A DNA stretch of 32,121 nucleotides from a virus (Duplodnaviria; Caudoviricetes): the IMG/VR virus record IMGVR_UViG_3300020042_005194, positions 1-32,121 of that record. One strand, given 5' to 3'. The notes beneath the pieces were generated by a model. It made no database searches and was not told where the DNA came from. It saw nothing but the letters and a program-made list of their open reading frames with translations. Within the stretch, counting starts at the first letter, position 1; the number at the start of each line of letters is the position of its first letter. Positions 19,961-32,121 of this stretch are shown in pieces. The position numbers and the translations under genes are program-made.

Positions 19961-20914
19961 TTAAAAAAGTGTGTTTTTAATTATATCACCTTTACCATTC
20001 CAAAATATAGACTCAAATACTTTCTTCTTATTGTTAGTAGCTGACAAACTACTTCTGTGTGAAAACATTTCAATCTTTTCAAAAGGTGCATCATACTCAC
20101 TCAAATAAGCTGGATAATCTAAATTAGCAAACCATTGATAAAAAGAATCGTGATTAAATCCTCCATCTTTATATTCGCCTGTTCCTTTGTATGGAATATC
20201 ACAGTAAATTACAGGATTATTTCCTTGTATTAAAACTTTTTCATAACTTGTGTTATTTGTCTGTAGGTTCTGTAGGTTCTGTAGGTTCTGTAGGTTCTGT
20301 AGGGTCTGTAGGTTCTGTAGGTTCTGTAGTCGTGTTAAGTGTTCAACTAATTCTAAGTTTTGAACATCACATCTTTTTTCTGTTATTTTTTTAACGTGGC
20401 TACAAAAAGCTAATATTCTTTTTTGAATATCTTTTATTTTAAAAATACCATCCATATTTAAACCTAACTTAAACATTGCAGTTTCGTCTAAATTAACTAT
20501 TAATTCGTGTGCAAGTCTTTTAAATTCTTCAATATCAGCACCATATAAATATGAATTTTGACTATTACCAAAACTCCAGCAACTCATAACAAAACCAGAA
20601 AACCAATCCGCATCTTCATTACTTTTATTTATTTGTTTATGGAACTCTTCTCTGGTTACCCATTCGTAAAATTTAGGATCTAATTCTTTATTGTTTTTAA
20701 CATACTCTACTAAACTATAAATATGTTTATTTAATTCGTTGTAATGTACGTTAAAACGGTAATCTCTTACTGCAGTAAAACTAATTGAACCTCCACCGCC
20801 AAACAAATCATAAAAGTCTGTTATTTTTTCGTGTCTGTTTGTAATTTTTTCTAATATTTGAGAAGCTAATTTTCTCTTACTCCCCATATAAGGTATCCCT
20901 AAATTTTGTTTCAT
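19961..20914 (-). CDS. DNA adenine methyltransferase (Dam/D12-like)
   Basis: PYMGSKRKLA, DLFGGGGS SAM-binding motif, YCDIPY catalytic-motif variant. Confidence 0.85.
   Translation of the reverse strand: MKQNLGIPYMGSKRKLASQILEKITNRHEKITDFYDLFGGGGSISFTAVRDYRFNVHYNELNKHIYSLVEYVKNNKELDPKFYEWVTREEFHKQINKSNEDADWFSGFVMSCWSFGNSQNSYLYGADIEEFKRLAHELIVNLDETAMFKLGLNMDGIFKIKDIQKRILAFCSHVKKITEKRCDVQNLELVEHLTRLQNLQNLQTLQNLQNLQNLQNLQTNNTSYEKVLIQGNNPVIYCDIPYKGTGEYKDGGFNHDSFYQWFANLDYPAYLSEYDAPFEKIEMFSHRSSLSATNNKKKVFESIFWNGKGDIIKNTLF
20261..20329. repeat. 9-bp tandem repeat (CTGTAGGTT) x7 plus partial
   Basis: Seven units (one CTGTAGGGT) plus CTGTAG; encodes (LQN/LQT)8 in the methylase. Confidence 0.95.
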
Positions 20915-29795: not shown

Positions 29796-29918
29796 TTACT
29801 TACCATATTTAAGTTTTAAAATGTTTCTTAATACTTTGTTTACAGATTCTTTATTTACACCACGCTCGTAATTAAAACGTTGTATTCTATTTATTCTTTG
29901 TAGTGGTGAAAGTTTCAT
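29796..29918 (-). CDS. Small basic hypothetical protein (40 aa)
   Basis: Not in ORF track; MKLSPLQRINRIQRFNYERGVNKESVNKVLRNILKLKYGK; TAATG overlap with exonuclease stop. Confidence 0.5.
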   Translation of the reverse strand: MKLSPLQRINRIQRFNYERGVNKESVNKVLRNILKLKYGK

Positions 29919-30823
29919 TATATAAATAAATTAGTTTTAAACTTTAAATAATTCATATAAGCAGAATTACTTATTTCATTTGTAGCGTTGCAATCTTTAC
30001 ACTCCATTAAACGTTTAATTGTACCTAAAGTAGTGACTATATTTTTAAGAAGTATAATATCTTCAGAACCGCAACAACTACAACTAAATTTTAAATTTCC
30101 ACCTAATACCCCAGCGTGTGTATTTGGCTTTATGTAGTTTTGCATTGTTTGAAATACATCTTTTAACACAATTATATCCCCCTCGCAATAAACAACCATT
30201 TCTTGCATAGCTTCTTTAGAGCCGTTTAATACATCTTTCCACATATCAAAACCTCTATGTTTAACCTTTGCCCCAACTCCTAAAAATTGAGCAATATAAT
30301 CTAATTTATTTGAGTTAAAATTAAATCCGCTTTTTGCTTTTTTAAGTGTGTCTAAAGTTTTATAACTTGGAAACATTGGTACTCTATGAAATATACAACG
30401 TGTACGCAACCATTTCATGTCAAACCTATCTCCATTGTGTGCTATTATTTCATCCGAAGTATTAGCTACTTTTAAAAAGTCAATTAACATTTGTTTGTCG
30501 CATTGGTTTTTATCCCAAGTTAATGTATGAATTTTATCTTCATCCTCCCAATTATAAGATATACAAATTATACGTCTTTCTTCTATAATATCTTGTGGTT
30601 GTATTGATAAGTTGTAACCTGTTCTCCAAAAGTAACCAATATTCGGACTTGTTTCAATATCAAAAAATAATCTTCTTATTTGGTGAGTGTTTTCCCTTAA
30701 TTTAATAAGTTCTAATTCTTGTTTTTTAGATAGCCTATATCTGTTTTTTAAATTAAAACTTAATCCTAATTTTTGAACTTCTACGTTATTTAATCGATAA
30801 CGTCTTTCTTTGTTTGTTTTCAT
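29918..30823 (-). CDS. DnaQ/RNase H-like 3'-5' exonuclease with C-terminal zinc ribbon
   Basis: ExoI FFDIETS, ExoII HNGDRFD, ExoIII YCEGD; CSCC and CKDC. Confidence 0.85.
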   Translation of the reverse strand: MKTNKERRYRLNNVEVQKLGLSFNLKNRYRLSKKQELELIKLRENTHQIRRLFFDIETSPNIGYFWRTGYNLSIQPQDIIEERRIICISYNWEDEDKIHTLTWDKNQCDKQMLIDFLKVANTSDEIIAHNGDRFDMKWLRTRCIFHRVPMFPSYKTLDTLKKAKSGFNFNSNKLDYIAQFLGVGAKVKHRGFDMWKDVLNGSKEAMQEMVVYCEGDIIVLKDVFQTMQNYIKPNTHAGVLGGNLKFSCSCCGSEDIILLKNIVTTLGTIKRLMECKDCNATNEISNSAYMNYLKFKTNLFI

Positions 30824-30961: not shown

Positions 30962-31026
30962 TTATATTTTATTTTACGCAAGTGTTAAATTTTTAACTTG
31001 CTGATTATTAATTAGTTTAAAAGTGT

Positions 31027-31055
31027 ATTGCGTATATATGCGAGTTATGCGTAAT
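31027..31055 (+). other. attI-like simple recombination site at array boundary
   Basis: ATTGCGTATAT-ATGCGAG-TTATGCGTAAT: 11-bp imperfect inverted arms around 7 bp, containing the GTTATGC core but no attC-like hairpin body. Confidence 0.5.
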
Positions 31056-31590
31056 GGCTACGATACTGCTCTAAATTGACAGACCCTTCTGCTTCATTGC
31101 CCCAAACGTCCCAACCCTGCTTTACGTCCCTTGCAAATAATTCTATTCTGTTTCCTGATGGATATATCGTGTCTATTAAGTCCGCGAAATACTTTGGTTT
31201 TTTTGAATGTTCGGTGCGTTCTATTGAAACAACACTATCAAACAATTTCTTTATTTCGGGTGTGCAACTTCCTTTAGTGCATATCAATAAAAGCTCGTGC
31301 CTTACAGAGTTATAATGCCCCATATTGTGTTTTATTTTATCCCAAACAAAACTACTTTTATATTTGAAACCCCACGATTTTATAACAGCAAATGTTTCTT
31401 CAAGTAATGGGCTTGTAGTCCAAATAAATAAAACAGCGTTATCTTCTGTAAGGCACTTTACAGGTAAGTTGCAAAGTTCTTTTATTGTCATTGTTTGATA
31501 GTGTTTTACTGCACCTCCAAGTTTAGGTGTATTTTGCTTGTCGTTATATTTCCAAGCAGGGTCTGCATAAATTATTTTGTATTTCTTCAT
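31045..31590 (-). CDS. MT-A70 family adenine methyltransferase
   Basis: YADPAW, LFIWTT, WGFKYK, HSKKP, IELFAR, GWDVWGNE; likely start ATG 31590; stop TAA lies inside the GCATAAC core. Confidence 0.9.
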   Translation of the reverse strand: MKKYKIIYADPAWKYNDKQNTPKLGGAVKHYQTMTIKELCNLPVKCLTEDNAVLFIWTTSPLLEETFAVIKSWGFKYKSSFVWDKIKHNMGHYNSVRHELLLICTKGSCTPEIKKLFDSVVSIERTEHSKKPKYFADLIDTIYPSGNRIELFARDVKQGWDVWGNEAEGSVNLEQYRSHYA

Positions 31591-31718
31591 TCTAATTAAA
31601 TTTATCGTTAATAAACCGCCACTACGCATAACAGCGGTTTTGTGCTATTTGCCCCATCAACATTTGTTGTAAATTGAAGCCTTGTGCAAGGGGCAAACAG
31701 ACACAAAGCCACAGGACG
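31045..31718. mobile_element. Putative gene cassette 1 (MT-A70 methyltransferase plus attC-like site)
   Basis: Bounded by GTTATGCGTAATGGC (31044-31058) and GCCACTACGCATAAC (31618-31632), 14/15 inverted match. Confidence 0.65.
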
Positions 31719-31726
31719 TTATGCGT
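31624..31726. repeat. attC-like imperfect palindrome
   Basis: ACGCATAAC-AGC-GGTTTTGTG-CTATTTGCCCC...GGGGCAAACAG-A-CACAAAGCC-ACAGGAC-GTTATGCGT. Confidence 0.75.
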
Positions 31727-32049
31727 CAGCTTACAAGAGCATCCCAATAACTAACGTGTTTATTAATGACAGAACCGCCACCGCAACAATTTACGTTGTG
31801 AATTTGACAGCCATTAGGTTTTAATTGTTCATCGCAAACGGTTTTAACAACGAAAACTTTGTCATCATCAAACCATTCTTTTTGACAAACATTGTGAGTG
31901 CCACCCGAAAAATCCCCTTCAAGTTCAACTTGTTTTTCTCTAATTCCAACAACTTTAAAAGGTTCGTGTCCGTAATAAACACATTCAATATAAACAGGAT
32001 ACATATTCAAAACTTTGTATCCTTTAATTGCTACTTTTTTGTAATTCAT
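31726..32049 (-). CDS. Hypothetical Cys-rich protein (107 aa), cassette cargo
   Basis: VELEGDFSGGTHNV; stop TGA abuts CGCATAAC core. Confidence 0.65.
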   Translation of the reverse strand: MNYKKVAIKGYKVLNMYPVYIECVYYGHEPFKVVGIREKQVELEGDFSGGTHNVCQKEWFDDDKVFVVKTVCDEQLKPNGCQIHNVNCCGGGSVINKHVSYWDALVS

Positions 32050-32086
32050 TTTATTTATTTTTTAAGTTTAATATTAATAAAAGCCG

Positions 32087-32121
32087 ACGCATAACAAGGG
32101 TTTTACACAAGGTGGGAAGAC
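32087..32121. repeat. Second attC-like site, left arm only
   Basis: ACGCATAAC-AAG-GGTTTT parallels ACGCATAAC-AGC-GGTTTT of the first site. Confidence 0.6.

Follow-up and report, generated by a model that had tools for sequence, protein, structure and literature searches.

Phage contig and cassette array

Which kind of site heads a gene cassette array at the right end of a tailed phage contig, and which enzyme could work it? The window, i.e., the whole 32,121-nt stretch analyzed here, is an entire viral contig, ~97% complete according to CheckV. Its genes for portal, terminase, helicase, and exonuclease all lie on the minus strand, and the phage also encodes a single-strand binding protein. 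At the right end we found a GTTATGC without a hairpin (31044), then a full hairpin (31618-31732) and the cut foot of a second one, and the contig end breaks inside the array. The initial annotation had proposed this leftmost GTTATGC as an attI/dif-like insertion point, hereafter the dock.

Cassette 1 (31045-31718, plus strand, 674 nt) begins with TT and ends with the G of its hairpin, and the same unit, 93-95% identical, occurs in other phages among unrelated neighbors. It contains an MT-A70 family DNA methyltransferase (31045-31629, minus strand; Pfam PF05063, E 2.4e-25; PHROG 359) antisense to the array, with its start at 31629 or possibly at the ATG at 31590. Cassette 2 (31719-32121, plus strand) is cut by the contig end, with the left foot of hairpin 2 at 32081-32121, and contains a 107-aa orphan ORF (31726-32049, minus strand) without any family match. 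Both ORFs lie on the minus strand, as had been annotated, and the stop codons are indeed in or next to the core: TAA at 31045-31047 falls within it, and TGA at 31726-31728 is 8 nt right of the next G. The attC-like hairpin 1 (31618-31732) has AAC at 31630 and G|TT at 31718; in its predicted fold, a 4-nt bulge on one side adjoins the core and the stem has isolated unpaired bases, and the fold is better on the minus strand (z -4.4) than on the plus strand (z -3.6). Cultured Flavobacterium phages carry copies 85% identical to this hairpin, from which we infer that the host is probably a flavobacterium. In phages, an ORF can begin within a hairpin and extend through its core (window 31590-31629 and L228:5678-6238), which results in short N-terminal extensions.

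No tyrosine recombinase (PF00589) was found in the 32,121-nt contig. With one whole and one cut hairpin and no PF00589, the array falls under the definition of a phage CALIN as two or more attC-like sites without integrase. Since the contig is ~97% complete and broken within the array, there is still room for a phage-encoded recombinase; one of five related viral contigs carries its own. A second DNA methyltransferase (19961-20914, PHROG 56) lies outside the array, and no high-scoring hairpin was detected beside it.

The array is not part of a conserved gene neighborhood. The exonuclease at 29918-30823 has close relatives (81-85% identity) in which lysis genes mostly take the place of the 44-aa ORF, the dock, and the array; thus, the dock module is not syntenic. 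A search with the relaxed dock pattern over 160 exonuclease loci found only L258 and no syntenic relative. An empty dock, which the initial annotation suggested looking for in phage relatives, was seen nowhere, and the 22 close exonuclease relatives are dock-free in the ≤700 nt upstream.

Anatomy and conservation of the dock

The dock, ATTGCGTATAT-ATGCGAG|TTATGCGTAAT, spans positions 31027-31055 on the plus strand. It consists of a left arm, or L box (ATTGCGTATAT, 31027-31037), a 7-nt centre (ATGCGAG, 31038-31044) with the crossover after G31044 (G|TT), and a right arm (TTATGCGTAAT, 31045-31055), which is the 5' end of cassette 1 and contains the stop of the minus-strand methyltransferase. The 11-N7-11 dyad lies where the initial annotation had placed it, with arms complementary at 8/11, and there is no hairpin body 5' of the GTT at 31044. 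The dyad alone is not beyond chance, since 11-7-11 dyads of at least 8/11 start at 126 of the 32,092 window positions, and the dock dyad does not fold (z -0.27 and +1.18 against shuffles). The dock stands out by its conservation and its role as a junction, not by the dyad alone.

The 19-mer TTGCGTATATANGCGAGTT matches 9 viral loci and its relaxed form 40; of the viral matches, those starting with TTGCG or CTGCG were scored. In genomes, TTGCGTATATWWRCGAGTTR matches 86 loci, and a Bacteroidota taxon is named in 74 of the 80 titled records. The left arm motif is therefore present in 86 genome loci and 40 viral loci, and the 19-mer is kept across many Bacteroidota families with unrelated flanks. 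Outside the searched bases, the 84 bacterial and 18 phage sites share the consensus TTRNNNGYAAT on the right side, with a GTTRNNNGYAA core (these counts, and those on gene orientation, junctions, hairpins, and polarity, omit L249 and L250, where the match lies inside long ORFs; L223 was also dropped from the junction, hairpin, and polarity counts). The mean arm complementarity is 5.5/11 among the bacterial sites and 6.7/11 among the phage ones versus 3.4 in the control, which makes the dyad a genuine family trait. Left arm and centre are fixed, and the right arm varies with the docked cassette. The annotation was thus right that a hairpin-less 11-7-11 dock sits at the left end of the array. 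Relatives, in 86 genome loci and in phages, keep a site at the array boundary; what is kept there is left arm plus centre, and the right arm, counted as half of the docking dyad, belongs to the cassette.

The distribution is patchy. A window-type dock occurs in only 13/151 Flavobacterium genomes (4 control matches). Two genomes have seven matches each and three others two, some of them by chance. A loose two-arm scan returned 119 loci with 86 distinct matches, eight of which, including the window, looked real, and the rest were treated as chance. Four further candidates (L431, L433, L448, and L453) were rejected as false positives because the motif lies inside a conserved membrane-protein gene. 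A BLAST search of the dock against named phages gave chance matches only, and the Rfam search returned nothing. In L500 a dock lies directly behind a hairpin end, with antisense cargo, and in L149 and L155 two docks stand in tandem, 1.7-2.5 kb apart; docks themselves may thus be moved or duplicated.

Cassette junction and polarity of the array

The methyltransferase has relatives at 80 loci, and the four most similar ones (93-95% identity at the DNA level) were informative for the junction. In three of these four (L255, L256, and L257) cassette homology begins exactly at 31044, while in the fourth it begins 17 nt earlier, by way of a similar left arm. Furthermore, 15 site pairs have left flanks 80-100% identical, and right of the core they are only 18-48% identical. 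Contigs assembled from public sequencing runs have loose ends before 31042 and 31044. In L255, L256, and L257 the methyltransferase cassette lies behind three other left flanks, which points to further dock types or a short hairpin type.

The ends of the cassettes give the direction of the array: a hairpin foot is expected to match the left end of its own cassette, provided that the cassette was formerly circular. In both window cassettes, the left end is complementary to the foot of the cassette's own hairpin at 14/15 nt, while the arm now downstream of hairpin 1 matches the foot at only 9/15. The same comparison favors the cassette's own left end over the downstream arm in 34/37 bacterial and 12/14 phage cassettes, with one loss and four ties, and the one position of the foot that does not match usually forms a G-T pair in the bottom strand. 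This strand also gives the better fold (29:3 in phages, 33:5 in bacteria). Downstream of the dock, hairpins are found at 14/16 phage and 27/63 bacterial sites, and upstream of it at 0/18 and 4/73, respectively; at 36/63 bacterial sites no hairpin was detected within 3 kb. These counts come from revised finders, which replaced two earlier ones that were too strict. The match of the hairpin foot to the cassette's own end, together with the downstream hairpins, indicates that the right arm is the cassette 5' end and that the array runs left to right. The annotated polarity, with the array on the plus strand and the genes antisense to it, is therefore borne out by the junction at 31044, the foot matching, and the placement of the hairpins.

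Gene orientation and transcription

The annotated claim that the cargo is oriented opposite to usual integron cassettes and along with phage transcription agrees with the data, the portal, terminase, helicase, and exonuclease genes being on the minus strand too. Indeed, the first gene is antisense at 15/16 phage sites. At the 68 bacterial-genome sites it is sense in 62, antisense in three, and absent in three, and the contrast between bacteria and phages (62:3 versus 1:15) has a P value of 1.5e-12. The motif TAnnTTTG, which we take to be a Bacteroidota promoter element, lies at -40 to -43 of 17/84 bacterial sites (background 0.6) and of 0/18 phage sites; at the window dock none is present at that offset. 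A sigma-70 promoter scan gave results below chance. In phages, transcription of the cassette genes would start from phage promoters at the array's far end, and the newest cassette would then be the last in the transcript, not the first.

Upstream palindrome and inverted half-site

An imperfect palindrome preceding the dyad, GCAAGTGTTAAA/TTTTAACTTGC, had also been annotated. It is present at 30978-31001, with a weak fold (z -2.5 and -2.4; 7 and 6 of 200 shuffles). Most relatives do not preserve the palindrome: by eye, a short stem is visible in L228 and L239 and absent from most other phage sites. It overlaps TACGCAA (30975-30981, minus strand), an inverted copy of the left-arm core TTGCGTA located 46 nt upstream of the left arm. 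ACGCAA occurs at the same offset in 7/18 phage sites versus 0/84 bacterial-genome sites; in the phage sites that carry TACGCAA the intervening sequence differs, and the upstream gene can have either orientation. Gaps of 44-47 nt also occur at some sense-type metagenome sites, in a scan that required the motif. The upstream palindrome appears mostly incidental, and relevant, if at all, through the inverted left-arm copy. By analogy with DR1/DR2 of attI1, our best guess is that TACGCAA is a candidate accessory recombinase-binding site.

The same element speaks for reading the dock as a decayed attC whose left half was lost, and not as a dedicated site: TACGCAA complements the left arm, with which it is paired in the lowest-energy fold. 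This fold is, however, no better than those of shuffled sequences (z -1.4 and -0.7), the hairpins are absent upstream of docks as reported above, and the conserved 19-mer crosses Bacteroidota families with a centre different from the attC right end. The decayed attC reading is thus largely refuted, and we leave it a very small probability.

Candidate recombinase

Of the 72 bacterial sites with enough flank, 10 have a tyrosine recombinase gene whose near end is 75-177 nt away from the dock, co-oriented in seven cases and divergent in three. All 10 dock-neighboring recombinases scored against the IntI model TIGR02249 reach 139-220 bits, with a cut-off of 265. The nine full-length ones from the bacterial sites, at 143-220 bits, also fall short of the cut-offs for XerC and XerD and come nearest to the XerA model, which two of the nine pass, while a real XerD located 4 kb from one dock passes its own XerD cut-off. 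Searching from the enzyme, we found the recombinase in 36/61 Flavobacterium genomes. In the interval 60-200 nt after the recombinase stop codon, 21/26 Flavobacterium loci have a TAW-N6-GTTR-N6-A site, versus 14/563 control windows. Aligning the dock with sequence beside integrase genes, as had been suggested, thus recovers the same kind of arm past the recombinase gene, and these host loci present what is expected of an attI, namely a two-arm site with G|TT beside a recombinase gene.

Two further members of this recombinase family were also observed. A complete 69.8-kb phage (G002; L422:1096-1962, L240:4001-4019) has a window-type dock and also encodes, ~13 kb from it, a Xer-like recombinase of 266 aa, which is accompanied by another dock with antisense cassettes and adjoins an unrelated 415-aa integrase. 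This 266-aa protein is closest to archaeal XerA and ~48 residues shorter than IntI4 in the insertion region (45 versus 93 residues between aligned blocks). At L162:1296-1955, a 219-aa recombinase of the Xer-like dock family lies downstream of a dock, in cassette position.

The position of these genes points to the Xer-like family as the recombining enzyme. The Xer-like host recombinase that the initial annotation had offered as an alternative is probably right in kind, but the enzyme would be neither XerC nor XerD. Overall, we consider it quite probable that the dock is a cassette border conserved among Bacteroidota and their phages, likely the attI equivalent of an integron-like system, and that a host Xer-like recombinase devoid of the IntI insertion likely acts on it in trans.

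Such a system could work as follows. A cassette would be excised between two hairpins as a circle, and its bottom strand, which in phages is the gene-coding strand, would fold. Two recombinase subunits would then sit on the 11-nt arms of the double-stranded dock and two on the folded site; one strand would be cut at AA|C, and the junction would be resolved by replication, as for IntI. Contigs from 4/24 public runs span cassette 1, with the dock outside their coverage, a gap that carries no weight as evidence, and no joint of a circular cassette was seen in them.

The site geometry could also be that of a dif mimic, at which the host XerC and XerD insert folded single-stranded cassettes, as for CTXphi. 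Compared with the E. coli dif given in the sections of PMC3025954 used here, the left arm agrees with the XerC arm at 7/11 and the right arm with the XerD arm at 8/11; according to the same sections, a longer centre and a degenerate XerD arm are frequent among the dif-like sites of phages, and integrase-less Bacteroidetes microviruses have been proposed to use dif-like sites (PMC3091885, in the part considered). On the other hand, the 28-bp 11-6-11 geometry of dif does not fit a 7-nt centre, and the right arm is cassette-derived, reaching only 4-7/11 against the XerD arm in 85/101 sites. Up to seven matches per chromosome and the patchy occurrence described above (13/151 genomes) differ from dif, which is one site near the terminus, and the recombinase beside the docks is distinct and below the XerC/XerD cut-offs. 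An E. coli-type dif pattern matched 0/5 dock genomes, so that it does not serve as a control for a separate true dif. The dif/XerCD reading of the dock is thus unlikely, and we give it only a slight probability compared with an attI equivalent worked by a Xer-like enzyme; an evolutionary link of the dock system to Xer/dif is plausible.

Cassette moves in cultured Flavobacterium phages

The genomes of cultured Flavobacterium phages show exact cassette differences. Phages lillamy9-1 and lillamy9-3 have equal length, and a 439-nt TT-to-G unit stands mid-array in lillamy9-1 and at a hairpin-less dock in lillamy9-3, with no mismatches in the unit and two in the surrounding 6,524 nt. The cassette shows no scar at the dock, where flanking homology is limited to a few core bases. 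Furthermore, mumin6-3 is without one exact 506-nt unit, and seven isolates share one common left flank followed by five different first cassettes. No PF00589 was found in five cultured-phage genomes of this group. The lillamy dock is TATCATGTAAT-ATTGTAG|TT, which is not of the window family. If the unit moved from the array to the dock, as we infer, the event would be a re-insertion at an attI-like dock, and it supports the dock logic by analogy, not the dock family of the window.

These moves bear on whether the phage proteins could simply recombine similar hairpins by homology, the dock being a mere array end. The window phage has an exonuclease and a single-strand binding protein, and hairpins 85% alike between phages would offer substrates. 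The scarless lillamy cassette at a hairpin-less dock, with almost no flanking homology, argues against such a process, as do junctions at the same base in unrelated contexts. Homologous recombination also leaves unexplained the match of cassette left ends to their own hairpin foot, and we find it hardly credible here.

In the available portion of the paper by Nilsson et al. (PMC7077304), a missing methyltransferase is linked to lower plating efficiency, and the words integron and cassette are not used for these phages. Cassette movement at docks offers a mechanism for the methyltransferase differences tied to plating efficiency in that portion.

Comparison with known systems

Several features are shared with classical integrons, as far as these are described in the passages of PMC5027507 and PMC9024848 used here: a dock of two arms in double-stranded DNA, a crossover that falls at G|TT (on the bottom strand, AA|C), attC-like hairpins with a stabler bottom strand, an internal cassette apparently re-inserted at the dock, and chromosomal docks with sense cargo and an upstream promoter-like motif. 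Unlike in classical integrons, the recombinase is nearest to XerA and has no IntI insertion, docks are often solo (as in the window phage) and several per chromosome, and the phage cargo is antisense, with no promoter-like motif at the phage dock. The window GCATAAC/GTTATGC also departs from the classical core RYYYAAC/GTTRRRY given in the same passages of PMC5027507. The passages of PMC9024848 report one complete integron in Bacteroidetes (Salinibacter) and attI sites poorly described outside class 1. The dock works like an integron attI, but given recombinases below the IntI cut-off, a deviating core consensus, and the antisense genes of phages, we do not classify the system as a classical integron.

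A related published case is that of the phage CALINs described by Qi et al. 2023 (PMC9892861), where clusters of cassettes with DNA methyltransferases, but no integrase, are carried by lytic phages. One of these is a Polaribacter phage, in which one site recombined with IntI1. The sections of that paper used here describe no dock, polarity rule, or dedicated enzyme, and the P12002L sites are called divergent and ascribed to mosaicism. On this precedent, the window could hold an ordinary fragment of a classical IntI-type integron (CALIN) picked up by the phage, and the G|TT crossover, the AAC/GTT feet, and the bottom-strand bias are as in classical attC. Against it, all 10 neighboring recombinases are below the IntI cut-off, the one aligned to IntI4 lacks ~48 residues, and the core is GTTRNNNGYAA, not GTTRRRY. 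The Polaribacter evidence itself can be read differently. In phage P12002L, we found the window hairpin family on the plus strand and the genes on the minus strand. The 'attC2' that was recombined by IntI1 is a 69-nt stretch present twice (L518:29172-29240 and L518:37198-37266), each copy heading an antisense methyltransferase array with a different cassette; this position suggests a third dock family, not an attC. For attC1, the true family hairpin, the same sections give no verified junction. A fragment of a classical integron is thus improbable.

A Xer-type system remains close in kind. The 11-nt arms around a short centre and the reliance on a host enzyme recall dif/XerCD and the Xer-hijacking phages (CTXphi and, in the part of PMC3091885 considered, the microviruses). 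Unlike in those phages, the dock is carried by the phage itself and serves to take up genes, not to integrate the phage.

No description of the dock or of the cassette system was found in the literature, in a search light on subscription papers and without bioRxiv supplements; the parts considered of PMC8138268, PMC8618304, PMC13616975, and 10.1101/2024.07.02.601686 contain nothing specific to the dock. A broader scenario, which we judge evenly balanced between true and false, is that lytic Bacteroidota phages keep recombinase-free docks at which anti-restriction genes are captured and reordered by a Xer-type recombinase, devoid of the IntI insertion and borrowed from the host, with cassettes gene-backwards for the phage and gene-forwards for host docks. 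If true, it would add a simpler second lineage of integrons, whose site and enzyme are close to Xer/dif, in which folded single-stranded DNA is recombined without the element thought essential, and which standard integron surveys missed across a whole phylum. The defined 11-7-11 dock family, the candidate enzyme, and the cultured phage-host pairs differing by an exact cassette move make it testable whether a tyrosine recombinase without the IntI insertion recombines folded single strands, which bears on the origin of integrons from Xer/dif.

P12002L also carries long hairpin-like sites (L518:32492-32692, 39516-39707, and 31121-31311), whose loops overlap small annotated ORFs (gp41, gp57, and part of gp37).
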